DNA of 64,000 nucleotides. Origin: a virus. The translations under genes and the position numbers were made by a program. The stretch's first letter is position 1. Each line of letters starts with the position of its first letter. Below the pieces are notes generated by a model. That model worked only from the letters and a program-made list of their open reading frames with translations, did not search any database and had not been told where the DNA came from. Below are positions 18,041-47,679 of this stretch, piece by piece. Location of the stretch: IMG/VR virus record IMGVR_UViG_3300045988_127310, one strand, 5' to 3'.

Positions 18041-18129
18041 CAACAATCCCCAACCGTACGCCTATTGTATGGTTGGGGATTGTTGTAGTTACCATCTTTT
18101 CTTATATAAGCAGAACATGAAATAAGTTT

Positions 18130-18618: not shown

Positions 18619-18750
18619 ATTATTTCACTTTTACGATTTTAATAGAATCTCCGATATTGTATTCTCCTTGGTATCCAACGAATTTTATGATTCTATTATG
18701 TTTAAATATTGAAGGTGATTATATACAACTTTGCACCATCTATATAAAAC

Positions 18751-18795
18751 AGAAGCCGGATAATGATTAACGTATATCCGGCTTCTGTTTTATAT
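18751..18795. terminator. bidirectional terminator hairpin (AGAAGCCGGATA/TATCCGGCTTCT)
   Basis: 12-bp perfect stem flanked by A-run and T-run on both sides. Confidence 0.6.
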
Positions 18796-18797
18796 GG

Positions 18798-18986
18798 TTA
18801 AAATTCTTTTTCGTTACCACCTTTTTTAGAGGTGGTTTTATCAAAAAGAGGGTCGTTAGGATCTGTTTTGGGATTATAGCTAAATACACCTTTAGCTATT
18901 CTCTTCATATCCTTCTCTAATTTTCCACTTTTACTACTTCTGATCGTAGTAGTGGTTGATATTGTGAATTTCTTATTTTTTTTCAT
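18798..18986 (-). CDS. small basic ORF downstream of the transposase
   Basis: 62 aa; overlaps the transposase stop by 4 nt. Weak. Confidence 0.3.
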   Translation of the reverse strand: MKKNKKFTISTTTTIRSSKSGKLEKDMKRIAKGVFSYNPKTDPNDPLFDKTTSKKGGNEKEF

Positions 18987-19906
18987 GCCGTAATTTTCTT
19001 TAGTTGTGAATACCTTAATCGTCGTTTGGTATTCTGCAAAAATACATCGAATCTTTCAGATTCCGATAGATGTTTCGTGTTATATCTGAAAGATTCGCAA
19101 TCTACATATCTTTGAAGATGTTTTCTCGACACCCAGAAATGGGTTCCAGAAATCATTTTCTTCAAATGGCTCCAATATCCTTCGATTGTGTTTGTTGATC
19201 TTCTGCCTATTACATACGCTCCCTTTTTGTGATATACTTTTTGATGATCAAACTTTTCTTTGTCGATCCCGTTATACGCATACCATTCGTCAGAATATAT
19301 GGTAGAATTAGGATGAACGGTATTGTATATCAAAGGAAGTAAGGTTTTACCTTTTGTGTCTGTAACGACATAAGTGACAACAAATCCTTCTCGTTGGAGT
19401 GTCCCAAACACAGGGGTTTTATCTTTTAAAGATCTCCCCTGTGCATCTTTAACTTTATCCTTACTATGTCTATTCTTGTTTTTGCCACCAATATAAGTTT
19501 CATCCACTTCAATCTCGCCTTTCAAACACGGCTCTTTTATTTCAATACTAAAACAATTGTGAATACGTTGAAGCATAAACCAAGCCGTTTTCTGTGTTAC
19601 TCCCACGATTTTAGACAACTGTAAAGATGATACTCCTCTTTTCATTTCAACAACAAAATAACAAGCCAGCATCCATTTTCGTAATGAAACCTTTGAATTT
19701 TCAAAAATCGTTCCTGTACGAACATTGAAGTATTTACCCGTGTTTTTACACTTGTACCTATTTCCTTTGCATTTATACACCTTAGATTCCGGATCAAAAG
19801 GAGAAACAACGTGATCTCCCCACCTTTCTTTTTCAAGAAAGGTTATACACGCTTGCTCATCAGGGAACAATTTTGAAAATTCAGGAAGTGATTTAAAATC
19901 GAACAT
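18983..19906 (-). CDS. IS1595-family (ISXO2-like) DDE transposase
   Basis: 307 aa. It has an N-terminal zinc-ribbon region, then a DDE-type core with the ISXO2-like pattern (GEIEVDETYIGGK ... YSDEWYAYNG ... TNTIEGYWSHLKK). Size and motifs fit IS1595-family transposases, which are common in Bacteroides. Confidence 0.7.
   Translation of the reverse strand: MFDFKSLPEFSKLFPDEQACITFLEKERWGDHVVSPFDPESKVYKCKGNRYKCKNTGKYFNVRTGTIFENSKVSLRKWMLACYFVVEMKRGVSSLQLSKIVGVTQKTAWFMLQRIHNCFSIEIKEPCLKGEIEVDETYIGGKNKNRHSKDKVKDAQGRSLKDKTPVFGTLQREGFVVTYVVTDTKGKTLLPLIYNTVHPNSTIYSDEWYAYNGIDKEKFDHQKVYHKKGAYVIGRRSTNTIEGYWSHLKKMISGTHFWVSRKHLQRYVDCESFRYNTKHLSESERFDVFLQNTKRRLRYSQLKKITA
18983..19906 (-). mobile_element. 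IS1595-family insertion sequence core; terminal inverted repeats not delimited
   Basis: Transposase gene only. Flanking AT-rich DNA gave no clear inverted repeats or target-site duplication. Confidence 0.4.
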
Positions 19907-20075
19907 ACTTCTTATCTTTATATTGGATTATAAAAATACAAAAATATATTCATATAACCAACTAAAAATCAATTAAATTCATCGAATATCTGATTTTGAA
20001 TTATTTTTTTTTTGTTGTTAAATTTCTAATTCTTTTCTATTTTTGAGGATTGTCTAACTTTATAATACTAATATC

Positions 20076-20471
20076 ATGTACAAGGAAACTGTCAAAATTG
20101 ATTCTATAGAGTGTACCATATTTTATGATCAAGATATTAATCTACCTCAAAAACAAGAAATAGATTTTGAATTTAAAATTGAAGACGTGCCCTCATACCA
20201 ATTTAAAAATGGACAAATCAATTCTTATGTTTCGGGTAAGATTTTTGAGATCAAGTCTATTTTACCTATAGAAGGCAATATTTCAAAATCTTCTTCTTTT
20301 GCTGAAATTCCTAAATTTAATATTACTTTTGATTTTCTATATAAATTATCTCTATTTCATTTGGAAAATCACTTGAAAACGTTAGAACTTGTATATAATC
20401 ATAAATTGGATAAAGATTCAATAACCAATATTCTTAAAAAGAAATTGGATGATTTTTTTTATCATAAATAA
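20076..20471 (+). CDS. hypothetical protein (131 aa)
   Basis: ORF in the cargo islet. Overlaps the 3' end of the leftward ORF 20434..20682. Confidence 0.4.
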   Translation: MYKETVKIDSIECTIFYDQDINLPQKQEIDFEFKIEDVPSYQFKNGQINSYVSGKIFEIKSILPIEGNISKSSSFAEIPKFNITFDFLYKLSLFHLENHLKTLELVYNHKLDKDSITNILKKKLDDFFYHK

Positions 20472-20682
20472 ATTTATCATACTCTTCTTTCGATATTCTT
20501 ATGCCATCTTTAAAATAGATGGCATAAGGCGTTTTTTCTGGTATAACTACAGAAATATATCCTTTTGAATGTAATATTTTCTGAAATTTATCATTGTCAA
20601 AAAAATAATAACTTTCAAGTAAATGGATATATTCTTTATCTGTTAACCCCCAAAGACTTTGATAATCTTCTAAATGTTTCAT
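20434..20682 (-). CDS. hypothetical small protein
   Basis: Its ATG directly abuts the conserved 38-nt element at 20681-20718. Confidence 0.45.
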   Translation of the reverse strand: MKHLEDYQSLWGLTDKEYIHLLESYYFFDNDKFQKILHSKGYISVVIPEKTPYAIYFKDGIRISKEEYDKFIYDKKNHPISF

Positions 20683-20718
20683 AACTGTAATTTTTAAAAG
20701 TGAATAATTAATTGATTT
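20681..20718 (-). promoter_or_regulatory. conserved 38-nt promoter/leader element, copy A (ATAACTnTAAnTTTTAAAAnTGAATAATTAATTGA)
   Basis: 35 of 38 nt identical to 43481-43518. Both copies end exactly at a leftward ATG. Confidence 0.45.
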
Positions 20719-20720
20719 AT

Positions 20721-20760
20721 AAAAAGAAAGCGGTGATAAACTAAGTTACCACCGCTTTTA
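20721..20760 (-). terminator. rho-independent terminator for the lipoprotein/OMP transcript (AAGCGGTG/CACCGCTT)
   Basis: 8-bp stem; a T-run on the minus strand follows the lipoprotein stop. Confidence 0.55.
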
Positions 20761-20778
20761 CTATCATATTGTTTCGTA

Positions 20779-21174
20779 TTACTTTATTTTGTACATTGAG
20801 AAATCTTCAAAATCACCAGATATACAATCAAGTTTCAGCCAACCTTCTGACACCTTTACATCATAAACAATAGGTGGCTCAGGGTCACTATCAAATACAA
20901 TGACTAATCTCATTGTATTTTTATCAAAAGAGTATGTGAAAGGATCTGGGCTTTTCTTTTTGCCTTCATTGTAATATACAGTCATTACGCCTGTATCGTC
21001 ATTATAAAATGTGAGTTCGAAAAATTCATCTGCGGGGAATTGCTCTCCCCATGAACCTATTAATATGCTGTTATTGTCATTATTCACATTATCGTCGTTA
21101 CACGAAAATGTGAATAAAAGTAGCAAGGTTAATAATATATGTAGTACTTGTTTCATGTTATTGTTAAAATTCAT
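20779..21174 (-). CDS. lipoprotein (signal peptide plus lipobox FSC)
   Basis: The N-terminus MKQVLHILLTLLLLFTFSCNDD is a type II signal peptide with a lipobox cysteine. Confidence 0.65.
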   Translation of the reverse strand: MNFNNNMKQVLHILLTLLLLFTFSCNDDNVNNDNNSILIGSWGEQFPADEFFELTFYNDDTGVMTVYYNEGKKKSPDPFTYSFDKNTMRLVIVFDSDPEPPIVYDVKVSEGWLKLDCISGDFEDFSMYKIK

Positions 21175-21868
21175 ATCCTACCTTTATACTAAATCCGTTC
21201 ATGTCACCACTTCCATCTCCCCATTCTTCATCAAATGATACCTTTTGTATAGAATATCCTATACCTAAATTAACAGCTTGTTTTTTAGTAGTCATAAACC
21301 GTACACCAATAAAAGGGTTACAATACAATCCACCTTTTTTTGCATGTCTTGGTGCTTCTTTAGTATTGAACTTATACCCTATTCTTAATGCAATAAAAGG
21401 TGATATTGGACCATTTAAGGCATATCCTCTCACATCAGCAAATATAGGTATGCTTACTGTTGAATAATCGGTCATATAGTGTATGCCGGTTCCACCTCCT
21501 ACAAATAAATACTGATTGATTTGGCTTCCATACGTGAAATATAATTCTGGACCTTTGTATCCACCTGCCCAGTATCCAAGATCAATCATAAATCTACTCC
21601 CTGTCAAATCGTACTTTTCATTGGATATCTTAAATGGAATTTTAGATTCTTTCTCTTCTTTGGTTATTTTACTGATATCTTCCATAGGGTACACAAACGT
21701 ACTACCATCAGAAGTGCGAATAGTAATTTGCTTGTCTGGTATCTGCTCGATAATAACCCCTTTTATAACACTTCCATTTTTTAAATGAATAGCTTCAACC
21801 ATTTTGTTCTGTGAGTAAGCGCATACACTACCCAATAGAACAACTAACAATAATAGATACTTTTTCAT
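21164..21868 (-). CDS. outer-membrane beta-barrel protein (Bacteroidetes OMP, porin-like)
   Basis: Signal peptide MKKYLLLLVVLLGSVCAYSQ; alternating amphipathic strands; C-terminal VGYEF aromatic terminus typical of beta-barrel OMPs. Confidence 0.65.
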   Translation of the reverse strand: MKKYLLLLVVLLGSVCAYSQNKMVEAIHLKNGSVIKGVIIEQIPDKQITIRTSDGSTFVYPMEDISKITKEEKESKIPFKISNEKYDLTGSRFMIDLGYWAGGYKGPELYFTYGSQINQYLFVGGGTGIHYMTDYSTVSIPIFADVRGYALNGPISPFIALRIGYKFNTKEAPRHAKKGGLYCNPFIGVRFMTTKKQAVNLGIGYSIQKVSFDEEWGDGSGDMNGFSIKVGYEF

Positions 21869-22363
21869 ATGAAATAATTTTGCTCTTTCTGCCTCCTTCG
21901 AAAGATTAACAAAAAAAAGAAGCGTGGAGACTATTGGATACTACCGCATTGAGGTCTTGGACTACCCTTCGCACAATAGTAAACAATAGCCCCACGCCTT
22001 ATGTCAGTATACTATTATCCCTCTTGTATAATCAGAATGCGTATACAACAACATAGGCGTAGGAGCTGTATGTCTATTATCTTGTGCGAATGAAAGTGTC
22101 CAAGTTTCAATGCAAGATAATATCTTAACGCTTCTACGTCTTTATTCTAATACGTGAGGGCAAAGATAGTTATTCTATCTAATATTTTAAAACGGCTTAA
22201 AAGGATTTAATTTGATGTAAAATGAATATTGGGAATTTTAACAGTTCGTGTTTTTGCATAAACAACAAAATATCTAAGATCATGAACAAATGCAAAAAGC
22301 CATCAAGAGAAACAGCCAGTAAAGCAGGCAAGTTATTAAGAAAGAAGATATCTTCCAAAGATG

Positions 22364-22708
22364 TTAAAACTCTTGCAGGTTACACTTTACAAGCCGCTTC
22401 CCGTCGTGGAAAAAGTAAGAGTGGTTGCCAAAAGAAAGGAAAATAAGTTCTTTAATACAAGCTTTTGGTATGGTCATTATACCAGAAGCTTGTTCTAATG
22501 TATTGGAATTACCAACAGCATAATGACCAGCTACAGATATAGATCTCTCATTTTCATGTACAACAATACCATAGCTCTCTATTTCTGATATATCTGTTTC
22601 GTAATCCTCCAGATCTACCCATGTTCTTTCTGATAGGTTGGAATCTATCCACTTAACTAATACCCGCTTGTTTAAAAGCGATTCTTTTTTATGTCTATTC
22701 TTTTTCAT
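22364..22708 (-). CDS. hypothetical protein (114 aa)
   Basis: Leftward ORF, preferred over the overlapping rightward 74-aa ORF. Confidence 0.45.
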   Translation of the reverse strand: MKKNRHKKESLLNKRVLVKWIDSNLSERTWVDLEDYETDISEIESYGIVVHENERSISVAGHYAVGNSNTLEQASGIMTIPKACIKELIFLSFGNHSYFFHDGKRLVKCNLQEF

Positions 22709-22817
22709 AACTTGTTATATTGATTTTTTAATAAACGAAAAGAGATTGTGCCAGCATTTTGACACAATCTCAATTATATGGGAATAATACTAAGGAAAGG
22801 TGTAAAGTGGTATATAA

Positions 22818-23006
22818 TTACCAAAATTTGTAACCTGGTTTTACAGCTTCCGCTTCTTCTCTCGTATCAAACATTAAGGTAGTGACAGCTCCTATGCCTT
22901 CGCAAATGTAAGACACTTTCACCCACCACCTAAAAATACCAGAACCGTAATCATCATAGTACGGCTCGGAAAGAATCTCTTCTACATACCCATCTAAATA
23001 ATTCAC
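22818..23006 (-). CDS. hypothetical small protein
   Basis: 4-nt overlap with the upstream gene. Confidence 0.35.
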   Translation of the reverse strand: MNYLDGYVEEILSEPYYDDYGSGIFRWWVKVSYICEGIGAVTTLMFDTREEAEAVKPGYKFW

Positions 23007-23725: not shown

Positions 23726-24251
23726 ATTTTAGATTTTCAAGTTCGTGTATTTGTAACTTAAGAGACTTAATTAAATCCGTTCTCTGCTCCTCTGCATGTT
23801 TTAAAGCCTCTTCCTTGCTTTCAAAAGCACAATCCCCTATCTGATAAGGGGTGTAACGACCAGGAGTGTCGGCTAATAAAAGACCACCACAATCTTCTAT
23901 TCTGGCTTTTACCTTTCTTATTTTCCCATCTTTTAGACACATGTCCGTAACCCATACGAATTTACCATATAATTTATCATACTCTTCTAATCTCTCTTCT
24001 TGCAATTCATACCATTTAGGCTTAGGAAATCTTAATGTGAATTTAATTTCGGTATCTTTCTCTAAGACATTAATATCATACGCCTCCGGCCACAGTTCTT
24101 TTATGCTGTCTTCATCTTCAGCATACGCCACCAATACAAATGAATTATCGGATTCTGCACTACACCAATATGGATATTTTATAGGCCATTTGACTGGACG
24201 GTAGTCGTTGTCGCAGTCGGATTTTTTAATGTAAAATCTTGCTCTAATCAT
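23709..24251 (-). CDS. hypothetical protein (180 aa)
   Basis: Colinear ORF. Confidence 0.55.
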   Translation of the reverse strand: MIRARFYIKKSDCDNDYRPVKWPIKYPYWCSAESDNSFVLVAYAEDEDSIKELWPEAYDINVLEKDTEIKFTLRFPKPKWYELQEERLEEYDKLYGKFVWVTDMCLKDGKIRKVKARIEDCGGLLLADTPGRYTPYQIGDCAFESKEEALKHAEEQRTDLIKSLKLQIHELENLKFECDD

Positions 24252-25449
24252 GATTCTTTTATTCTTTTAAGTATATGTTCAATAACTTTAATAGTCCACC
24301 CGTTTCCCAACATCTTGTACTGTTGGGTTTCGCTGCATTCCCATTTATACCAATCTGGTACAGTCTGTAACCTGGAGCACTCTGTAGGGGTTAATCTTCT
24401 TATTCTGAAATCGCCATGTAATGTTCTCTGTATGATAAAATTGTTTCTATCATATGAATTACAAGATAATGTTGGAGTCTTATCTTCATGAAATCCACCT
24501 TTGTTAAATCCTCTTGGTATTTGGAAAATAAGATTATCTTTCTGAACTGTTGTGAGACAATTGGATTTTCCATCGTTTTTAAATTCAATCATCTGAACTG
24601 TTTTAAGACCAGATTCTCTACATGTAGGTTTTTCTGGATTCCTACCTCTCATTGCTACACAAATAAGATCGTACGTGTATTTACCCTTTACGGTAACAGT
24701 ATTGGATTTTTCATCTTTTGTTTTAATATTAGCTCCATAATAATTCCCCTTGTCGTGATTTCTTTTCAAGTGAAAAGCTAAATTGTTTAAAACTTTTTCA
24801 GATAAGTAATATTTTTCATCTACTTCATATTCCTCTATATCACTTATGGTCAAACCCTCGTCTTTAGGCTGAGGGATAATGCCGCCTTGAATATTAGTCC
24901 AATAAATACGTTTCCTGGTTTGAGCGGAAACAAGTGCTGAATTAATATGATTGCCTTTACACCCTATAGCATCATCGAATACCGGCTCCCATTTCTTTCC
25001 CATCTTAACGTTCTCAAGAAGAAACAACACATCAGGATTAGTTTTTCTTACATCATTCAAAATACGAATAAACTCCCAGAATAAGTAAGACTGACCGGCA
25101 AATTCAAATCCTTGTTTTTTTTTAATTCAAGATACTCATCAAGTGATTTGATTTCTATTCCTTCTACGGTAGACAACCCTTTTCTTTTTCCAGAAAAGGA
25201 CATATCTGTACATGGGCTGCCGGCTAAAATAAGATCTATGTGTCCAAGATCTTCTACATTCAAATCCCTTACATCTCCTACTTGTATCGTATTAGGGAAA
25301 TTTAATTGCGTTCGTTTAATAGCAAACTTATCTATTTCTGATGCATAATATACTTCAGGTGTGATCCCTACTTCTTTTAACGCTATTTGACCACATGACA
25401 TTCCGTCAAATAAACTTAACACTCTCATGGCATTATACACATTTTTCAA
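24248..25449 (-). pseudogene. Dcm-type DNA (cytosine-5) methyltransferase, split into two ORFs by a -1 frameshift within an A9 tract (phase-variable OFF, pseudogene, or homopolymer sequencing error)
   Basis: The N-terminal ORF carries motif I (LFDGMSCG) and the PC motif (GSPCTDMS). The C-terminal frame carries ENV (FLLENVKM), QTRKRIYW and the C-terminal RRLTPTECSRLQTVPDWY...LGNGW motifs. The frames join perfectly if the A9 run at 25115-25123 were A10. Confidence 0.8.
25115..25123 (-). repeat. homopolymeric A9 (T9 on the plus strand) tract at the methyltransferase frameshift point
   Basis: Encodes KKN in the N-terminal frame; one extra A restores a KKKQGFEFAGQSYLFWEF reading. Confidence 0.8.
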
Positions 25450-29464: not shown

Positions 29465-29603
29465 ATATCCTCCAGCTTCTCCTGAAGCTCAAACGCTTTC
29501 TTGAAATTCCCGCATCGTTCAGCAACGTCTCTCATGTATGTCAAGTTTATAACTTCCGGATCTTGCCGGTATTTTGTTCTTAACTTTTGAACATCCTCAT
29601 ATT

Positions 29604-30623
29604 TCATCGTTTTATCTTTTTAGACGGATCCCAATCCGAAGAGAAAGGGCATTCGTTTTTGTTATGTAATCCAAAGTCACAATAATAACACAGTGCTGAC
29701 GGGCAGGGCAGCTTGTTTTGCGGAACAGGCTGACTTAGGGTGGCGCGCCGCTTGCTATACCTGGCTCCTTCTGCTCCCTGGATGTACGCTTGAAATGTTT
29801 TTACACTATTATCTTCAAAATCATACATTTTGGATAAAGTGTCATTTAGCATTTCTATAGATTTTGTTTTACGTTCCTCATCAACTTTAACCTTTTGGTA
29901 TTGTCTGGTCCTGGTAAAGAAATAGATGTTCATATCCGGCAGAACCCCACCATATTTTCTATAGATGTAAAATGAATATATAGGATGCTGTAAATTCGTT
30001 TCCAACTTCTTAGAATCAAAAACCTTATTCCCTGATTTCCAATCTATGACATAATGGTGAACTACGTTCTTGCTTTTTATAGCCAGATGAAGGTCTACTG
30101 ATCCTACTATGTACACATGTGTATGAACGTCACCATTTATATCAACAGGCTTAGGAAGACGATACGGCAGCACAAAATCTTCTTCTACTCCAACTATAGC
30201 ACCGTGTCTGATAAGTTTCTCACAGGGATTAAGATCACTATCAGCTATCATAAACCTATTGCCGTCTTTTTTGAACAGATCCACAATCCAAGCAAGAAGC
30301 TCCCCAGATTGTTTCATGGCTATCATCATATTTTCTGGTGATTGCCAAGGTATGTCTTCTTGATAGGAATAGTAACTTATCGCTTCTCCAAGGTCTTTAC
30401 CAGAAGGCTGTCTTCCGTTCTTAAAGAAGTATTCCAGTGTTTTATGGATAACCGTACCATAAGATGTAGCTTCTTGTTTTTCTGTAGACCTTTTACCCTC
30501 TACGTAAGTCTTATACCATTTCATTGGACAAGTAAGAAACGTATCTATCTGGGAATAAGATATGGCAAGACGTTTCACACCATTAAACTCCTTATATAGC
30601 AAATGTGTTTCCGGGACCATCAT
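29604..30623 (-). CDS. Cas4/RecB-family PD-(D/E)xK exonuclease with Fe-S cluster cysteines
   Basis: Motif II (GSVDLHL), motif III (VIDWKSGNK), a QhxxY-like motif (QHPIYSFYIY), one N-terminal Cys (TCPMKWY) and a C-terminal CPSALCYYC...C cluster. Confidence 0.7.
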   Translation of the reverse strand: MMVPETHLLYKEFNGVKRLAISYSQIDTFLTCPMKWYKTYVEGKRSTEKQEATSYGTVIHKTLEYFFKNGRQPSGKDLGEAISYYSYQEDIPWQSPENMMIAMKQSGELLAWIVDLFKKDGNRFMIADSDLNPCEKLIRHGAIVGVEEDFVLPYRLPKPVDINGDVHTHVYIVGSVDLHLAIKSKNVVHHYVIDWKSGNKVFDSKKLETNLQHPIYSFYIYRKYGGVLPDMNIYFFTRTRQYQKVKVDEERKTKSIEMLNDTLSKMYDFEDNSVKTFQAYIQGAEGARYSKRRATLSQPVPQNKLPCPSALCYYCDFGLHNKNECPFSSDWDPSKKIKR

Positions 30624-30979
30624 AAGTCATTGTCTTTAAATCCTTCCGGGTAATATACGACATACTTCTTACCGTCTTCTGGTGTCATGGCAAACTGCAT
30701 GTAGTTATCGCGATTACGATGCTTACCATCTAATCCTCGCTTCCAATACAGAATCCCGTCTATATCCACATAAGACCGTCCGCGTTCGGCTCTAACTACG
30801 TCCGTGTGCAGCAGATACCCGTCGGAAGACACAATCCATACTTTATCTCCTTTGTTTAAATAAGATATTCTTTTTCTTACAACAACCTTTTTCTTATTAT
30901 CCAATACAAATTCCTCGTCAGTCATACTCTTCATCCTCCTCTTCTTCTGTTTCAAAATCAATTCCATAACACTGATCAT
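30620..30979 (-). CDS. hypothetical protein (119 aa)
   Basis: 4-nt overlap with the nuclease gene. Confidence 0.5.
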   Translation of the reverse strand: MISVMELILKQKKRRMKSMTDEEFVLDNKKKVVVRKRISYLNKGDKVWIVSSDGYLLHTDVVRAERGRSYVDIDGILYWKRGLDGKHRNRDNYMQFAMTPEDGKKYVVYYPEGFKDNDL

Positions 30980-31142
30980 AATGCTTGGTCAGTTCTTCTG
31001 GTTCTAAATCTTGTCCAAAATCCATGTTAAAAATATCGTAATTAGTAAAGCACTTAAAATCACTGTCCCTGCCGGCATGAAATCTATGAATGCTGCTTTT
31101 GCTTCTTCAATTAGGCCCAAGTGTAACCTTGGGCCATTGTAT

Positions 31143-32843
31143 TTATTTTTTGTCATCTCCTTTTAACTTCTTTAAAGTATCTGCAATCGGAAGCTGATCA
31201 ATGACTCCCAATGCCGGAGCGACGGTCTTGACAACATTATTAAGGAAATTACCGGTACTGTTCTGACCGCCGTCAAATACCGTGATATTTCCGAGGTTAA
31301 TGTGCTCAAATGCTTTAACCTGTTCTCCAGCAATTTCTTTCCACTGATTAACCATCTTGTACTGGATGGCGATCTGAGGATTGGATTCTGCTGCTTCCAC
31401 CATAGCCTTAAATCCGTCGGCTTCTGCCATTAACGACTTTTTCTTACCTTCGGCTTCTGCCCCCAGTTTCATCTGAATAGCTTTTGCCTCTGCCTCAGCT
31501 TTTGCCAAATGTGCTGATGCCTCAGCCTCAGCCCGGCGTTTGATCTTCTCGGCCTCGGCATCAGCTTGCAAGATAGCCTCTTCCTTTTGGGTTTCAGCCG
31601 GCACAATCTTTTCAGCCTTAAGCGCAGCCTGAACTTTCTTAGCCTTAGCTTCTTCCACTTCTTTGTCGGCAAGCTCTTTTGCTGTTTTTACAGCCGCTTC
31701 CGATTTAACTTTTTCTTCTCCGGCCTTCTTTTCTGATTGAGCTTTGATGATCTGTAGTTCTGATACTGACACAGCAACCTCCTTCTGGGCATTGTTGTAT
31801 CCTATAGACGCATTTTTCTCAGCCTCAGCCTTCTTAATCTGAGCTTCAGAGTCTTGTATTGCTATAGCCGCTTCCTTGTCAGCTTCAGCCTTATTCTTTC
31901 CGACTTCTTCCATCCTTTCAGCCTCGGCTTTATTTACTTCAAGTTCTGCCTTAGATCTTACGATCGCCGATTCCTTGTCGGTTAAAGTTTTTGCGATAAC
32001 CGCAGCCCTGTCTCTATCTGCTTGAGCTACACCGATCTGTTTCTCTTTATCGGTTAAAGCCAAGGCTATTTCTTTTTCTTTTTTCGTTTCAGCTACTATC
32101 GTTTCCTTTTCTTTTTCAGTACAAGCAATTTGAATCTCTTGTTCTTTTTTGGTATTAGCCACAGCCGTTTCTTTCTCCTTCTGCTGTACAGCAATCTTAA
32201 TAGCACCCAGCTTCTCCTGCTCTTCGATATTAGCCTGTGCTTCGTTCAGAGCCCTACTTTCAGCCTCCTTACCAAGGTTCATAATATAACCGGCTTCGTC
32301 TCTGATGTCACTGATGTTGATGTTCAGGAGGTAAAGACCTAACTTATTAAGCTCGTTATCAATGTTCTTTCTTGCCTTATCCAAAAACTCATCCCTGTCA
32401 GAATTAAGTTTTTCGATTGTCATTTCAGCAATAATCAAACGCATCTGACCGTAAACGATGTCCGTAATAAGATTTTCAGTAGATTCGGTATCCATCCCCA
32501 AAAGTCTTTCTGCCGCATTTTGCATGATTTCGGGATTTGTACTGATAGCTACTGTAATGGTCGTAGGTACATCTACTCTAATATTCTGAGATGACAAAGC
32601 ACCGGTAAGCTTGCAATCTATTTGCATAGGCTCCATTGACAAAACATCATAGCTTTGAATAATAGGCAAGACAAATGCCGCTCCACCATGATATAATTTC
32701 GCCGATTTCTTTTCCCCACCTGTCTTACCATAAACGACCAAGACCTGATTAGGCTTACATCTACGATACCTTGATAAGACTCCGATGATTGTCAAAATAA
32801 TCACTACAGCTAAGATAGCTGACACGTACATGATTGTTGTCAT
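31143..32843 (-). CDS. flotillin-like SPFH/band-7 membrane scaffold protein (FloT/YqiK type)
   Basis: N-terminal TM helix and an SPFH-like domain, then a ~250-aa Ala/Glu/Lys-rich coiled-coil (EA-repeat) region and a conserved C-terminal tail. The overall architecture is that of bacterial flotillins. Confidence 0.8.
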   Translation of the reverse strand: MTTIMYVSAILAVVIILTIIGVLSRYRRCKPNQVLVVYGKTGGEKKSAKLYHGGAAFVLPIIQSYDVLSMEPMQIDCKLTGALSSQNIRVDVPTTITVAISTNPEIMQNAAERLLGMDTESTENLITDIVYGQMRLIIAEMTIEKLNSDRDEFLDKARKNIDNELNKLGLYLLNINISDIRDEAGYIMNLGKEAESRALNEAQANIEEQEKLGAIKIAVQQKEKETAVANTKKEQEIQIACTEKEKETIVAETKKEKEIALALTDKEKQIGVAQADRDRAAVIAKTLTDKESAIVRSKAELEVNKAEAERMEEVGKNKAEADKEAAIAIQDSEAQIKKAEAEKNASIGYNNAQKEVAVSVSELQIIKAQSEKKAGEEKVKSEAAVKTAKELADKEVEEAKAKKVQAALKAEKIVPAETQKEEAILQADAEAEKIKRRAEAEASAHLAKAEAEAKAIQMKLGAEAEGKKKSLMAEADGFKAMVEAAESNPQIAIQYKMVNQWKEIAGEQVKAFEHINLGNITVFDGGQNSTGNFLNNVVKTVAPALGVIDQLPIADTLKKLKGDDKK

Positions 32844-32874
32844 AACTTTTAAAATTTAATTGTTGATAAAAAAA

Positions 32875-33363
32875 TTAGATACTTAATTCTCCTTCTTCAT
32901 ATTTTATATTCGCCTTGTCGCCGTTTTTGTAGGTTTTTCCAGACAAGCATCTTACTCTCATTTGCTCTTGTCTTCCATTTTTCGAAATATTTACCATATA
33001 ATGATTCTTCCCTGATCTAAATACTATCTCCACTTCTCTTCCGTTTAAATCTTCCGGACATTCGTACACCATTTCTTGCTTTAACTTAAGAAGTAACTTA
33101 TATACGTAAAACAAAACGATAAAGAAAAACGACCCTATCACAACCCCTACTAAATGAGAACCCGAAAAGTAGGTAGTCCAGCTATATCCAAGAATAAAAT
33201 GTGTTATACCCTTAAATGATATGATGTCTGATAAAGACATGCTTAAATCAGAAGCATTGTCAATATCCGTATCCAGATCAGATCCTAATATCGACAACAA
33301 AAACTGTATAACAAAAGCAAATGATGCTATTAAAGCCATGCATAAAATTATATCACTTTCCAT
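32875..33363 (-). CDS. NfeD-like membrane protein (short form: N-terminal TM helices plus C-terminal OB-fold)
   Basis: Two N-terminal hydrophobic helices and a C-terminal beta-rich ~60 aa (VEIVFRSGKNHYMVNISKNGRQEQMRVRCLSGK...). Sits immediately upstream of flotillin, as in yuaF-floT and yqeZ-floA operons. Confidence 0.65.
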   Translation of the reverse strand: MESDIILCMALIASFAFVIQFLLSILGSDLDTDIDNASDLSMSLSDIISFKGITHFILGYSWTTYFSGSHLVGVVIGSFFFIVLFYVYKLLLKLKQEMVYECPEDLNGREVEIVFRSGKNHYMVNISKNGRQEQMRVRCLSGKTYKNGDKANIKYEEGELSI

Positions 33364-33604
33364 ACCCTTCTGTTATTATTTTGTAAACAAGATCAGTCAT
33401 ATCTTTGATGGTCTCCATATCATAATCAATAATAACAATATTGAATTTTTGTTCCACCATCACTTCCAGTTCAATTTGATCAACAGAATCTAATCCAAGT
33501 TCTTTAAACGTCACATCTTCTTCATGAACTATATCTATTTCCGAATTAAGAAACTGAGTAATAATTATATCCTCTATTATCTTTCTGATTCTTACTTTTT
33601 CCAT
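33353..33604 (-). CDS. acyl-carrier-protein-like protein (phosphopantetheine attachment motif)
   Basis: 83 aa, acidic. ELGLDSVDQIEL matches the LGxDS[LV] Ser-attachment motif of ACP/PCP domains. Overlaps the NfeD start by 11 nt. Confidence 0.55.
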   Translation of the reverse strand: MEKVRIRKIIEDIIITQFLNSEIDIVHEEDVTFKELGLDSVDQIELEVMVEQKFNIVIIDYDMETIKDMTDLVYKIITEGYGK

Positions 33605-34305
33605 TGCTTTCTAATTTTGTTAAATAAATACGTTTTTATGTTTTTCAATCGCTCTTTGTCTGTTTCAGAACTTCCGGTAAACAAATAATCCGGATTGCCT
33701 TTAGCTGGCGGCGTAGGCAATTTAGATACGGCAAACAACCAATCCATTTCCTTATTCTTCTTAGACTCCAAATAAGGCTCGGTAGCGATCTTAAATTTTT
33801 CAGCTATTAAGTCAAAGAGCTTTGAATTTTTAAGGTTCATATGAACTGAAAAAGCCTGAGAAGGCGGTTTCCATATGAAGTTGCATAAGCTCATTGTATA
33901 ATCTCCTGACTCTGCTATATAAGATTCCGTTACCTGAAGTATGACCTCTTTCTTGAATGAGGTGTTACCCATAAACCAACACAATCTGGATTCCGCTTCT
34001 TTTCTGCTGACACCTATGTCTTTTGAATATGATTCGTACATTCCTATCATAATCTTCAACGTTTCCAGAACCTCGTCTGTCATCTCCGGTGTCTCTATAT
34101 AATTCACAAAAGACGTTCCTTTGTTGGTCAATCTCATCACGCCTGATTTTAATTTCTCAACCAGGCCAAGCTCTATATACCTCCCAGCATCTTCTTCCGG
34201 CATGGCTTCGATCATAACCGTATCCTTCTGTCTTATGGCAAGAAGATTAGCAAGATCATTAGGAGTCATGTCTGATGCTGCAAGTTGTCTGAAATTGATG
34301 TACAT
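33592..34305 (-). CDS. hypothetical protein (237 aa)
   Basis: Overlaps the ACP start; colinear. Confidence 0.55.
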   Translation of the reverse strand: MYINFRQLAASDMTPNDLANLLAIRQKDTVMIEAMPEEDAGRYIELGLVEKLKSGVMRLTNKGTSFVNYIETPEMTDEVLETLKIMIGMYESYSKDIGVSRKEAESRLCWFMGNTSFKKEVILQVTESYIAESGDYTMSLCNFIWKPPSQAFSVHMNLKNSKLFDLIAEKFKIATEPYLESKKNKEMDWLFAVSKLPTPPAKGNPDYLFTGSSETDKERLKNIKTYLFNKIRKQWKK

Positions 34306-34307
34306 AC

Positions 34308-34505
34308 CTAATCAGCTTTAATGAAAATAACATCCTTGTTATCTTGTTTATCAATATGTTCACATGGACCAATAATCATGTCTGTACATGAACAATAATT
34401 GTATTTTTCAAATATACACCTATCGCATGTATCACCTTCCACACATTTTAATCTTACAAGTCCGGCAGTAAACACTTCTCCTACTTTAAATTCCTTCTTT
34501 TCCAT
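34308..34505 (-). CDS. small Cys-rich zinc-ribbon protein
   Basis: CVEGDTCDRC...CSC...CEH cysteine pattern. Confidence 0.4.
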   Translation of the reverse strand: MEKKEFKVGEVFTAGLVRLKCVEGDTCDRCIFEKYNYCSCTDMIIGPCEHIDKQDNKDVIFIKAD

Positions 34506-34520
34506 ATTCCCTCCTTGTTT

Positions 34521-35123
34521 TTAACTGTTGTACCCTTCTTTAATAATCGAATTTCTACCGGTAGATACCGACTGTCGAAGATCGTCATGTACAGAATCTA
34601 CCGTAGAATACTTGTTTCTGGTTGTAAAAATCACTTCCAGCATCTCCTTGTAATCACCTAAAGCTACTTCGTATCTCGGATCTACTTTGGCTTTTCTTTC
34701 AGCCTCGGCATTACTTTTAGCCAGTTCTCGATCAAGAAGATCTTCTTTGATTCGGTCAGCAATCATATCAAGTTCTTTTTTAATAACTTCTCCTGCTGCC
34801 CGAAGTTGACCTTCTACGTCACCAAGCTGGTCTTGGACGGTTCCTATTTCTTTCTTTAGACGATCGTATTCGTTAATCATACCCATATCACCAGCATAGC
34901 CAGAAAAGTCCTTGATTATTCTGGTTCCTTCTTTAAGGAGCTCAATAACTCGTCTTTTACGTTCTCTGCTTATTAAAGACGGAAGACGATAATTCATATC
35001 CGCCACCGCCTTATCATGTATGGAGTTGATTAAAAACATCTCTCTTTCATCCCCTGCAAACTCAGTAAGAACCAAAAGGAACTTACTTATCAGGTATTCG
35101 TTTTCTTCTACCGTTAGTCTCAT
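34521..35123 (-). CDS. hypothetical coiled-coil protein (200 aa)
   Basis: Colinear ORF; heptad-like charged stretches. Confidence 0.55.
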   Translation of the reverse strand: MRLTVEENEYLISKFLLVLTEFAGDEREMFLINSIHDKAVADMNYRLPSLISRERKRRVIELLKEGTRIIKDFSGYAGDMGMINEYDRLKKEIGTVQDQLGDVEGQLRAAGEVIKKELDMIADRIKEDLLDRELAKSNAEAERKAKVDPRYEVALGDYKEMLEVIFTTRNKYSTVDSVHDDLRQSVSTGRNSIIKEGYNS

Positions 35124-35137
35124 GGTTCTTATTTTTT

Positions 35138-36256
35138 TTAATACAATGACTGTTCTTCTTTTGTCTCTTGTTCCTGATTGTCCGTAACGTCTTCCACAGT
35201 ATAGAGCTTAGGCGGCGTCGGCGGCTGGTTGGGGTTCACGAACTTCGTCCCGCCCTCCCCGTACATCCATCCATGTCCCGGCAGTATCTCTGGGTGGATT
35301 GTATTAGTAAGCTCTTCCATACTAACTTGCCTTACCTTCAGTATATGATGAAACACAAGTCCGGCTGTCCTGAATGATGTTTTGTTTTCAGTTTTAAACC
35401 TATCAAGAGTCTGATACCAATCTTTCCCAAATATCATATACTTATCCAGCCCGTACCTACGAGGATTGTGCAAACCTATCATTAACGTACATAACTGACC
35501 CAGCGTATCAGATTGGTAAAAATCAGAAAGACGCGGAGGTTGCTCTTGTGGGCTTTTTATCCTTCCTTCTATCTCTCTGTTGAATTGGGATATGATGAGG
35601 AAAAATATGTTTTTATATACTAATTTAGCTTCGTTCATAACCGCCACCAAATCATCTATAGCCGACTTAGGATCTAACCCCATTCTTTTTATCAAAGCAA
35701 TATGATCGACTTTAAATATTATAAGACGTTTGTCTTTGTGTTTGGTAGCTATATGATACACAGCCGCCTCAAACTCTTTTACCGTACACGGAGCATCGAT
35801 GTATATTATATTATTCCTGATTTCACCTTGAAGGATTTCAAACATCCTCATCTCTTCTACTGTATTAGAATCTTGCCTTCTTAATATTTCAGGAGCTCGC
35901 TTTTTCATATCCTGGCTCATTCTACGAAGAAGAAGATCTTGAGGATTCATTTCGAACTCGCAATTAACAAGAAAATAATCTTCTGCTTGCGGGTTGATCA
36001 TCGGATTCATCACATTTTCCAATATCTTTTGGGCCACATACGATTTACCTACAGATGGCCGGGCTCCTATGGCAATAGCGTGCTGAGGAAAAATACCTCC
36101 AAGCAAAGCCTCATCAATATAATCGTATCCGGTTTTAGCGGGGATAAGCTCTCCCCGCCTGTATTTCAAGATATTCTCATACGCCTCTTCCATAACCTGT
36201 TTAGAGGTCTTGAATATCCTTCTTATATCTATCCTATTTGCTATCTCCTCTTGCAT
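35138..36256 (-). CDS. DnaB-like replicative helicase (RecA-fold C-terminal domain)
   Basis: Walker A (GARPSVGKS), a Walker B/H2-like LIIFKVDHIALI, and an H3 SQFNR match to the DnaB SQLNR motif. Confidence 0.7.
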   Translation of the reverse strand: MQEEIANRIDIRRIFKTSKQVMEEAYENILKYRRGELIPAKTGYDYIDEALLGGIFPQHAIAIGARPSVGKSYVAQKILENVMNPMINPQAEDYFLVNCEFEMNPQDLLLRRMSQDMKKRAPEILRRQDSNTVEEMRMFEILQGEIRNNIIYIDAPCTVKEFEAAVYHIATKHKDKRLIIFKVDHIALIKRMGLDPKSAIDDLVAVMNEAKLVYKNIFFLIISQFNREIEGRIKSPQEQPPRLSDFYQSDTLGQLCTLMIGLHNPRRYGLDKYMIFGKDWYQTLDRFKTENKTSFRTAGLVFHHILKVRQVSMEELTNTIHPEILPGHGWMYGEGGTKFVNPNQPPTPPKLYTVEDVTDNQEQETKEEQSLY

Positions 36257-36512
36257 TTTTGTCGCCTTTCGTATCCGACTTGGATCCCCTATTAGCTTTT
36301 ACTGATTTATACCTAAGACCGTTCTTGGTATGAGAACAATCCTTGCCTTTCCTCCAGCCCTTGCCCTTCTTCTTGTCCGTTTCGTAGTTTTTACGACCAA
36401 GCTCCCGGCGTTTGGCTTTCTGTTCCGGTCTGGCATTTATCTCCTTGTCCTTTTTAGCCTTTTTCTTCCTGGCTTCTGGATGAGTCCTGTAGTACTCTGT
36501 TGATCTGCCCAT
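36234..36512 (-). CDS. highly basic Lys/Arg-rich small protein (possible DNA-binding)
   Basis: 92 aa with more than 35% K+R. Overlaps the DnaB-like start by 23 nt. Confidence 0.45.
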   Translation of the reverse strand: MGRSTEYYRTHPEARKKKAKKDKEINARPEQKAKRRELGRKNYETDKKKGKGWRKGKDCSHTKNGLRYKSVKANRGSKSDTKGDKNARGDSK

Positions 36513-36564
36513 GTGCTTATATTTTTTTTGATTAATAATAGCACAAAGATAGGCAATTCGCGCC

Positions 36565-37131
36565 CTATTTCAACCTGCCGTAGCTCATATCAGGATCACA
36601 CCAGACATACCCATCTTTCTCATCATGGAGATACTCAGGACATCCTCTACATGCGCTACTTCCTGACACTATTTGATTGTTTTTATTAGGGCACTTATCT
36701 CCAGGTTTATGCCATTCTATTCTCGAACCTGATCGCTCTTTGTTTACATGACAGAATTGAAAGACTTTTCCCATCGTCTTCTCGCCAAACATACCTATAT
36801 GTGTGTACTCTTCCGGTATAGATAGAAATTCAGATAAATCTTTATACATCCCTTCCCGTTCCTCCGGCGTAGACCATAATCTGTCAAGTTCGGCATGGAC
36901 TCTTATCTTAAGAGACCTCAGTGATGGCCCCGCAAGCCGGCCTTTAGCTTTTCCCTTATTCGGCCCTGATTCATGAACACCGACATAAGCGTTGCATGGT
37001 TTGCACATCATAACCATCCCTAAGTCTTTTCTGCTATATATTTTATCGGCATTTACCAGCTCAGTTTCTCTTCCGCAATAAGGACAAATTTCGCCTCTTA
37101 AAACCCGTTGTTGGCGCTCATTAAGTTCCAT
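36565..37131 (-). CDS. multi-zinc-ribbon protein (188 aa)
   Basis: CPYCG...CKPC and CPNK...CRGC clusters. An HNH-like function is possible but not established. Confidence 0.5.
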   Translation of the reverse strand: MELNERQQRVLRGEICPYCGRETELVNADKIYSRKDLGMVMMCKPCNAYVGVHESGPNKGKAKGRLAGPSLRSLKIRVHAELDRLWSTPEEREGMYKDLSEFLSIPEEYTHIGMFGEKTMGKVFQFCHVNKERSGSRIEWHKPGDKCPNKNNQIVSGSSACRGCPEYLHDEKDGYVWCDPDMSYGRLK

Positions 37132-46881: not shown

Positions 46882-47679
46882 TTAATTGGACATAAATATA
46901 CGAGTTTTACTAAGATATCCTTCTGTCATCTCTATGAAATTCACACAATCTAATTTGCTTAACTTGTAAATCAATGCCGGATTGTGTACTATGGCTATAA
47001 TCTGTGTTTGTGGTTTATGGAATGACAATACATTATAAATTTGCATTATGTTGTCAATGTCAAGATTCCTATCTGGCTCATCCATGAGAACCGTGTATTC
47101 AAAACTGCTTTTTGTTAATGTTATGCGGTTTCTTTCATAATACTTCAACAGGTTATCAATTCTTTTAATCCAAAACGCATTTGATTTTTTCTTGTATTCT
47201 ACAAGATCTTGTATTGGAAATGTATAATCCTTTTGACCGAACATTAAATTGAAAAGTGATTCCAATGATAACACCACTTTCTCTCCATAAGATCTTCGAA
47301 TATTATTCACATACAAATCTAAGTTGCTGATGTTTTTCAATACGCTATCTCGATTCATCTCCGCCGATGGCAATAAACGGAATACTTTCCCTGCATAATC
47401 GGATGATATGTCAATCCCATCAAGAACCTTGTCATCATCATCAAATATAGGTGGAAAATCCAGTGCCTCGATCGGTATTTCAGAGCACATGGACTTCTCG
47501 CATAACGCATACATTGATATGATGTTAAGCAAGGTTGATTTTCCACTACCGTTTTTCCCTATAATCACATTCACTCCTGGCTTGAAAATAAATTCTCTGC
47601 CATTTTCAAATGCTTCTATATCCGAAACATATTCAAATGGAGTTTTTGTATTGTCTTTTATTTTTACTGATGTTATCAT
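46882..47679 (-). CDS. minimal ABC-type (AAA_21-like) ATPase
   Basis: Walker A (GKNGSGKST), a signature-like SYGEK motif, Walker B plus D-loop (TVLMDEPDRNLD) and an H-loop (IAIVHN). There is no coiled-coil or nuclease domain. Confidence 0.7.
   Translation of the reverse strand: MITSVKIKDNTKTPFEYVSDIEAFENGREFIFKPGVNVIIGKNGSGKSTLLNIISMYALCEKSMCSEIPIEALDFPPIFDDDDKVLDGIDISSDYAGKVFRLLPSAEMNRDSVLKNISNLDLYVNNIRRSYGEKVVLSLESLFNLMFGQKDYTFPIQDLVEYKKKSNAFWIKRIDNLLKYYERNRITLTKSSFEYTVLMDEPDRNLDIDNIMQIYNVLSFHKPQTQIIAIVHNPALIYKLSKLDCVNFIEMTEGYLSKTRIFMSN

Follow-up and report, generated by a model that had tools for sequence, protein, structure and literature searches.

A phage flotillin and its NfeD-like partner: an apparently Bacteroidales-derived gene pair with recurrent natural deletions of the flotillin

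Introduction

Why should a phage encode a flotillin, and does an acyl carrier protein (ACP) encoded beside it take part in the same function? This question is raised by three adjacent genes at positions 31143 to 33604 of a 64,000-nucleotide stretch (hereafter, the window) from the IMG/VR virus record IMGVR_UViG_3300045988_127310, which encode an ACP, an NfeD-like membrane protein and a flotillin. Flotillins are oligomeric membrane scaffolds or cages, the bacterial members FloA and FloT affect membrane fluidity and the organization of membrane machines, and NfeD proteins bind their SPFH-domain partners through an oligonucleotide/oligosaccharide-binding (OB) domain. A preliminary description of the window, made from the sequence without database searches, presented the three genes as a single operon coupling a membrane-microdomain scaffold to an acyl carrier. 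Here we find that the cellular counterpart of this locus is a two-gene unit and that the flotillin gene is repeatedly deleted from natural genomes. The reading that we consider reasonably probable is that the flotillin and its NfeD-like partner constitute a cassette captured once from Bacteroidales, which serves as an accessory, host-mimicking membrane scaffold, with the ACP being a separate matter.

Results

The cellular unit is a pair

The three leftward open reading frames (ORFs) are exactly those of the preliminary description:

31143..32843, minus strand: flotillin, 566 amino acids (aa); from the ORF list and Pfam
32875..33363, minus strand: NfeD-like partner, 162 aa; from the ORF list, fold and synteny
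33353..33604, minus strand: ACP, 83 aa; from the ORF list and the Pfam PP-binding family

They had been portrayed as three overlapping genes, which is accurate for the ACP and NfeD-like genes (11 nt of overlap), but not for the NfeD-like and flotillin genes, which are separated by a 31-nt gap.

The two most diverged matches to the phage flotillin occur in housekeeping contexts, each behind a gene for a 165-aa protein having 40% identity to the phage NfeD-like protein (E 8e-40). A scan of cellular genomes, limited to one genome per species and using an 8-sequence NfeD-like alignment as the query, yielded 80 loci, nearly all of them from Bacteroides, Phocaeicola and Parabacteroides. An NfeD-like gene is followed immediately by a flotillin gene in all 80 of these Bacteroidales loci, and none of the 80 contains a homolog of the ACP or of the two genes flanking the phage block (p237 and p50, described below) within 4 kb of the pair. 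The three genes were likewise not found together outside of this phage clade, neither at the 80 cellular loci nor in Vibrio phage KIT04, which has no ACP annotated beside its flotillin. The ancestral unit in cells is a two-gene arrangement of NfeD-like protein and flotillin. Both this result and the retention of an intact ACP gene by 18 of 19 genomes devoid of the flotillin (see below) speak against the proposal of a functionally coupled three-gene operon.

Relative to the phage copy, host flotillins exhibit 62–67% identity in the gut genera and 40–45% in a few distant Bacteroidia. By region, the identity is highest in the SPFH domain (~79%) and the C-terminal domain (~80%) and falls to ~50% in the coiled coil. 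Host NfeD-like proteins are 30–42% identical to that of the phage, and a SFKG.THF signature is common to both. In neighbor-joining trees of each protein, three phage representatives form a single, long-branched clade that occupies the same position inside the Bacteroidales, as sister to a gut Bacteroidaceae/Tannerellaceae/Prevotellaceae group. Because both phage proteins branch at the same place, we infer a single capture of both genes together from a Bacteroidales bacterium, with the donor probably belonging to the host lineage. Since the host flotillins are 86–97% identical among themselves compared to 64–68% between phage and host, the capture is either old or was followed by faster evolution. 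Among the IMG/VR matches listed for the NfeD-like protein, all belong to this phage clade, save for one host-like contig end.

Within the phages, the gene order p237 – ACP – NfeD-like – flotillin – p50 is shared by two diverged subclades (represented by L004 and by L005/L006), and this block synteny is the only evidence tying the ACP to the pair. As to the suggested check of whether related phages conserve the trio, adjacency is kept in both subclades, but not invariably the flotillin, which has been lost from 19 of 76 genomes that mostly retain the ACP and NfeD-like genes.

Recurrent loss of the flotillin in natural genomes

The genes bordering the trio and the segment affected by the losses are as follows:

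31004..31156, minus strand: p50, a small ORF of 50 aa with a C-terminal hydrophobic segment; from the ORF list
33592..34305, minus strand: p237, a conserved 237-aa protein with no family match; from synteny in all relatives
31033..32873, no strand assigned: deletion-prone segment comprising the flotillin gene and most of p50; from the junction alignment and the window sequence

Two samples were tallied, the former of which, being anchored upon the nearby helicase gene, is unbiased as to the module:

Helicase-anchored sample, 76 informative genomes: flotillin intact in 53, absent in 19, partial in 4
NfeD-anchored sample, 77 informative genomes: flotillin intact in 65, absent in 11, partial in 1

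Among the 19 helicase-anchored genomes lacking the flotillin, the ACP gene is intact in 18 and the NfeD-like gene in 17, and p50 is gone along with the flotillin. The distance from the NfeD-like stop codon to the next gene (p119) is ~1,900 bp in the intact arrangement and 56–58 bp in the commonest deletion allele, with other deletion alleles having gaps of 32, 77, 269–374, 425–433 or 856 bp, and the partial alleles retain flotillin residues 1–26, 1–50, 1–75 or 364–566. The 31033..32873 segment is bounded by a short direct repeat, ATTTTT, and the commonest allele is joined exactly at this microhomology, while still carrying the last ~24 nt of p50. The p50 remnant together with the ATTTTT junction therefore identifies recurrent deletions rather than an ancestral empty site.

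Where it occurs, the flotillin evolves under strong purifying selection: its ratio of nonsynonymous to synonymous substitution rates (dN/dS) is 0.038, and its dN between the subclades (0.121) is below the values for the helicase (0.149) and exonuclease (0.168). The flotillin gene is accessory, strongly conserved in the genomes that carry it and repeatedly deleted. Its loss from ~15–25% of genomes implies that it is not essential for replication or assembly.

Several further allele types accompany these deletions. In P0017, P0028 and P0033 (as well as P0025, P0030, P0045 and P0046), the N-terminal membrane portion of the NfeD-like protein is joined in frame to the last ~85 flotillin residues; these metagenomic fusion ORFs are further natural deletion products encoding chimeric proteins. 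In L217 (12461–12705), a ~360-bp non-coding insert directly follows the deletion junction, taking the place of the first p119 codons, and this allele (gap of ~425–433 bp) recurs in L219, L221, L234, L249 and others. The L217 insert matches the Rfam HEARO RNA family RF02033 (94.4 bits against a gathering score of 83, E 5e-20), with no nuclease ORF next to it. HEARO RNAs are associated with IscB-type IS200/IS605 elements. Among close relatives, flotillin length ranges from ~467 to 595 aa (481 aa in L004) and the variation appears to lie within the coiled-coil region. No tandem DNA repeats were found that would explain either the length variation or the deletions.

Identities of the three proteins

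The anatomy previously proposed for the flotillin, namely a transmembrane anchor, an SPFH domain, an Ala/Glu/Lys-rich coiled coil and a C-terminal tail, agrees well with the profile searches. Both diagnostic Pfam families were detected above their gathering scores: Band_7/SPFH (PF01145) at aa 30–211 (7.6e-26, 91.7 bits against a cut-off of 23.6) and the C-terminal Flot domain (PF15975) at aa 450–559 (5.7e-9, 36.6 bits against a cut-off of 27). A single hydrophobic segment at aa 1–28 (Kyte-Doolittle) is the predicted N-terminal membrane anchor, and residues ~212–449 form the coiled coil, consisting of 21% Ala, 17% Glu and 17% Lys. Of the solved structures, those with the best sequence match are the human flotillin-2/1 cages 9BQ2/9L3G (E 2e-22, aa 30–305). 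The NCBIfam FloT equivalog model NF058507 scores 144.6 bits against a cut-off of 700, which places the protein below equivalog level; judged by these profiles, it is a flotillin family member and not a FloT equivalog or an ortholog of Bacillus subtilis FloT. Neither the flotillin nor its NfeD-like partner matches any PHROG family, in keeping with the earlier assessment that such a module is unusual for phages.

The partner was more difficult to classify. Neither the phage protein nor two of its host homologs match Pfam NfeD (PF01957) or NCBIfam, even at E<=10, and a word-based search returned close relatives only. An exhaustive profile search assembled a family of 232 cluster representatives, mostly 155–180 aa, and just one of 71 family members reaches Pfam NfeD (6e-5), while the family profile aligns to the C-terminal domain of B. 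subtilis YuaF (2K14) at E 0.22. With 6 near-identical sequences as input, AlphaFold2 yielded a predicted local distance difference test (pLDDT) score of 62, which rose to 85.5 with a 69-sequence family alignment. The latter model contains helices at residues 2–27, 50–67 and 70–94, an acidic disordered loop at 28–43 and an OB-type beta domain at ~107–162, predicted to form a five-stranded barrel resembling the solved C-terminal domains of NfeD proteins. Hydrophobic segments at aa 1–30 and 65–94 (Kyte-Doolittle) constitute the predicted N-terminal transmembrane region, and the modeled protein corresponds to a short form without a protease domain. Its dN/dS is 0.048. The NfeD identity previously proposed is consequently upheld by fold, architecture and synteny, but not by sequence profile, and of the three profile searches that had been suggested as a check, those for Band_7/SPFH and PP-binding returned hits and that for NfeD did not. 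Because of the modeled fold, the predicted membrane region and the position of the gene directly upstream of the flotillin, the label “NfeD-like” seems justified as a structural and syntenic assignment, as opposed to profile-level membership.

The 83-aa protein is, as had been recognized, an acidic ACP with a phosphopantetheine-attachment motif. It matches Pfam PP-binding (PF00550) with 26.7 bits against a cut-off of 20.8, has 20 Asp+Glu versus 9 Lys+Arg, contains ELGLDSVDQIEL and carries the attachment serine (Ser40) within the motif LGLDS. This serine is invariant across ACP variants, including a subclade version having 38% identity. The PHROG family phrog_5934 (“acyl carrier protein”) matches at 2e-8 and a profile of the protein matches 111 solved type-II ACPs nearly from end to end (best 1.9e-11). 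The NCBIfam ACP models (TIGR00517 and related) reach at best 28–30 bits against cut-offs of 70–71, and the protein is, by these scores, a highly diverged ACP rather than a housekeeping AcpP equivalog. When aligned to what we take to be the Escherichia coli AcpP sequence, the DSL motif matches and there is 37% identity, in helix II only. The ACP evolves under a dN/dS of 0.25 and is 38% identical between the subclades (compared to 82% for the flotillin), with LGLDS kept. A search of 70 leftward-arm ORFs and of the annotation deposited for phage csAssE-Sib, which is also the sole deposited phage with a close relative of the ACP, revealed no phosphopantetheinyl transferase, acyltransferase, ketosynthase, AMP-ligase or thioesterase. 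The ACP most likely acts on its own, and host AcpS would modify it, for use with host acyl-ACP-dependent enzymes. It appears to be a separate clade-specific auxiliary gene outside of the function of the flotillin cassette.

The segment is phage DNA

An ordinary host chromosomal origin had been raised as an observation that would overturn a viral reading of the locus. Window positions 29500–37000 are 97.4% identical to GenBank OR575929.1, the 151-kb genome of the human gut phage csAssE-Sib, and the entire 64-kb window is collinear with 92.6–150 kb of that genome, whose deposited annotation includes terminase, portal, capsid and tail genes, a diversity-generating retroelement and tRNA genes. The same context is found again on hundreds of independent 75–155-kb viral contigs. 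The segment is phage DNA. In OR575929.1, the three genes already bear the labels “flotillin family protein,” “transmembrane protein” and “acyl carrier protein,” and the novelty implied by the preliminary description does not extend to the presence of a flotillin and an ACP.

The phage is a large Bacteroidota-type gut phage of ~150 kb that is abundant in the human gut. The closest cultured relatives of its capsid protein are those of the Cellulophaga phages phi17:2 and phi4:1 (~145 kb), at 34% identity. A classical crAssphage affinity was considered and not confirmed, the capsid being nearest to phi17:2/phi4:1; the deposited annotation does employ crAss-type names for structural genes. In scans of viral contigs seeded with the flotillin, helicase and NfeD-like protein, and in a homology search with the ACP, the matches listed are near-identical genomes rather than more distant relatives that might date the capture. 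In the 82%-identity subclade, L005 (13180–13707) and L006 (12880–13707) differ at one position downstream of the block: an OrfB_IS605/TnpB-like gene occupies it in one of them and a NAD-salvage gene (NAMPT/NAPRTase) in the other; this site is a further accessory-gene hotspot.

Surroundings of the block

The genes reside within a ~45-kb array of co-directional, tightly packed genes, along the whole of which overlaps are the norm: p50 runs into the flotillin stop by 14 nt and p237 into the ACP start by 13 nt. A sequence-signal scan gave no indication of a promoter or terminator private to the three genes, counting 23 sigma-70-type promoter-like sites compared to 18.6 +/- 4.4 in shuffled sequence (Bacteroidota and phage promoter types being outside the scan) and 6 terminator-like sites compared to 4.1 +/- 2.2 in the same region. 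The setting among phage replication genes, as originally described, is accurate, since Pfam and PHROG searches place a PD-(D/E)XK exonuclease and a DnaB-like helicase beside the block.

The hydrophobic segment of p50 spans aa 21–50, and its coding status is less certain given a dN/dS of 0.33; no counterpart follows the host flotillin at the 80 Bacteroidales loci. For p237, dN/dS is 0.037, and the gene is syntenic in L004 and L005/L006. It has no Pfam, PHROG, NCBIfam, PADLOC or PDB match, and among deposited phages it occurs in csAssE-Sib only. We considered p237 as the missing phosphopantetheinyl transferase or acyltransferase and rejected this, as there is no such similarity in Pfam, PHROG, NCBIfam or PDB; a “SRKEAE” stretch is visible by eye, without profile support.

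Elsewhere in the window, the skews of both GC and AT reverse near position 18100 (~18 kb), coincident with the switch from rightward structural genes, among which is a gene for a 2,148-aa protein at 10020–16466, to the long leftward replication/early arm. An IS1595-family transposase (18983–19906, minus strand; DDE_Tnp_IS1595, 4e-42) lies within a ~4-kb segment (~18713–22823) that is missing at the matching csAssE-Sib position, and which, on this comparison, is evidently a recent mobile-element insertion at the strand-switch region. Two overlapping ORFs (24248–25060 and 25057–25449, both minus strand) share out a C5 cytosine DNA methyltransferase, Pfam DNA_methylase positions 1–87 and 150–323 falling on different ones, whereas csAssE-Sib has a single 1,128-nt gene; the split could reflect a frameshift, a pseudogene or a sequencing error. 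At 46882–47679 (minus strand) there is a 265-aa P-loop protein with similarity to AAA_21 (AbiEii-type), SMC_N and AAA_23, which in csAssE-Sib is labeled only as “AAA ATPase domain protein.”

Discussion

From established SPFH and NfeD biology, a working model of the function of the pair can be outlined. During infection, the phage flotillin would anchor in the host cytoplasmic membrane through its N-terminal helix and, oligomerizing via the coiled coil and C-terminal domain, would build a flotillin-type scaffold or cage, onto which the OB domain of the NfeD-like partner may dock. The phage copy would thereby supplement or take over the host’s own ~65%-identical flotillin system, presumably keeping or reshaping the cytoplasmic membrane in a state favorable to phage production. 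The benefit may be host- or condition-dependent, and we propose this dependence as the reason for the frequent loss of the flotillin. Several points weigh against this model. The physiological role that we infer, whether membrane homeostasis or another, is drawn by analogy. The two tallies are drawn from overlapping sets of metagenome assemblies, many of which belong to one IMG/VR dataset. Of the 19 flotillin-less genomes, 17 retain the NfeD-like gene, which so has a value of its own beyond a simple cassette; as this gene survives without the phage flotillin, its product may also partner the host flotillin, the C-terminal domain of which is ~80% identical. Lastly, the adjacency of the ACP in two subclades, together with p237, may leave room for a functional link between the ACP and the pair.

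That link is the essence of the original proposal, in which the ACP, NfeD-like protein and flotillin form one module, a microdomain scaffold coupled to an acyl carrier for lipid remodeling or for a replication or assembly site. The shared gene order with p237 upstream in both subclades, the 11-nt ACP/NfeD-like overlap and the invariant attachment serine all speak for it. Set against these are the absence of the ACP from 80 of 80 cellular pairs, its intact state in 18 of 19 flotillin-less genomes, the lack of any acyl-handling enzyme in the leftward arm and the fact that overlaps are the rule along the array, with the sigma-70-type promoter and terminator scans detecting no private signals. A flotillin that is missing from ~15–25% of genomes, moreover, cannot be essential to replication or assembly. 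We therefore assign such a module a low probability. A related scenario, which we regard as doubtful, has the phage exploiting host flotillin microdomains: the NfeD-like protein, which stays under purifying selection even where the phage flotillin has been lost, would dock on the host flotillin, the phage flotillin, when present, would co-assemble with the latter, and the ACP, p237 and p50 would join a virus-specific membrane platform. If true, this would be a bacterial-virus counterpart of the exploitation of lipid rafts by eukaryotic viruses. Even further from the favored cassette is the notion that the locus is an ordinary piece of host chromosome with a cellular floT-type operon, or else an assembly chimera. 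The clearly cellular ancestry of the pair is compatible with this, but the collinearity of the 64-kb window with a complete 151-kb phage genome, the recurrence of its context on hundreds of viral contigs and the mere 62–67% (flotillin) and 30–42% (NfeD-like) identity of the nearest cellular copies reduce it to a negligible prospect.

Two other roles would also assign the cassette to phage biology, differing from a host-mimicking scaffold in what the flotillin does. It might be an exclusion device that alters the inner membrane against superinfecting phages or counters a membrane-acting host defense. Presence/absence polymorphism combined with purifying selection is typical of conditionally useful, conflict-related genes, and the gene is placed in the early/replication arm, both of which would suit such a device. 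However, an anti-phage defense assignment was rejected when none of the seven proteins of the block matched a PADLOC defense model, and the phage protein is a near full-length copy of a host housekeeping-type flotillin, ~80% conserved in its structured domains with no sign of neofunctionalization. Hence, exclusion seems unlikely to us, albeit not far-fetched. Alternatively, the flotillin could act in the manner of HflK/C by regulating a membrane protease such as FtsH, thus tuning the tempo of infection between lytic growth and a persistent carrier state. FtsH is caged by the SPFH proteins HflK/C, which control lambda CII, and in B. subtilis it is an interaction partner of the flotillins. Nevertheless, the phage protein belongs to the flotillin subfamily instead, given its best solved matches to flotillin-1/2 and its Pfam Flot C-terminal domain; the NfeD-like partner is a short form without a protease domain, and no FtsH-related gene is nearby. 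Despite a 2026 preprint that speculates likewise about an SPFH domain in a different Crassvirales genus, we find protease regulation quite improbable here. The genus in question is from Segatella copri, and the report concerns a domain hit only.

When compared to known systems, the phage pair most closely resembles that of the Bacteroidales, such as Bacteroides xylanisolvens XB1A, Phocaeicola massiliensis and Parabacteroides hominis (L011–L090), where the same genes are found in the same order and orientation with the same domain architecture. The cellular loci differ in lacking the ACP, p237 and p50 of the phage, in which the flotillin is in turn variably present. In comparison to yuaF-floT (NfeD1b-FloT) and yqeZ-floA of B. 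subtilis, the phage pair comes from a different phylum and has a viral genomic context, its flotillin is not orthologous and its partner fails Pfam NfeD. Homology to eukaryotic flotillin-1/flotillin-2 (9BQ2, 9L3G) suggests that the phage flotillin may likewise form a large membrane-attached oligomeric cage, although the eukaryotic proteins attach by acylation and hairpins, form hetero-oligomers and have no NfeD partner, whereas the phage protein has a predicted N-terminal helix. Among phages, Vibrio phage KIT04 (Demerecviridae, T5-like, LC487410.1) encodes a flotillin that is 29% identical to the present one in the SPFH region. Directly before this gene (L251, 2929–4350) is one for an 82-aa protein (2680–2928) comprising a helix, an acidic DLDD loop and two more helices, a membrane layout like that of the NfeD-like protein but without the OB domain; the remaining neighbors are mostly hypothetical proteins. 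This suggests an independent capture of a flotillin pair in KIT04, and by sequence flotillin genes would have entered phages more than once, from different hosts. Phage flotillins are rare, with only a handful of deposited phage records having similarity in the SPFH region. As for the ACP, phage members of PHROG 5934, annotated as “auxiliary metabolic gene,” are small acidic AcpP-like proteins with a DS(L/V)D motif, as is the ACP described here.

The names flotillin and acyl carrier protein were already known from GenBank. New in this work are the identification of the partner protein as NfeD-like, the origin of the pair in the host, the finding that the ACP stands apart from it, and the presence/absence polymorphism of the flotillin. 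Our literature search found no paper linking flotillin with crAss-like phages and none joining Bacteroides, flotillin and NfeD.

Bacterial flotillins and their NfeD partners are widespread and poorly understood, with those of the Bacteroidales being essentially unstudied. The current results correct the picture of a three-gene lipid module, as the ACP emerges as a separate phage auxiliary gene for which no phage-encoded partner enzymes were found. The interest of the locus rests mainly on the natural knock-outs, which make flotillin function testable: near-isogenic natural variants with and without the gene provide a ready genetic contrast for the role of a flotillin, be it for the virus or for a cell under viral attack.

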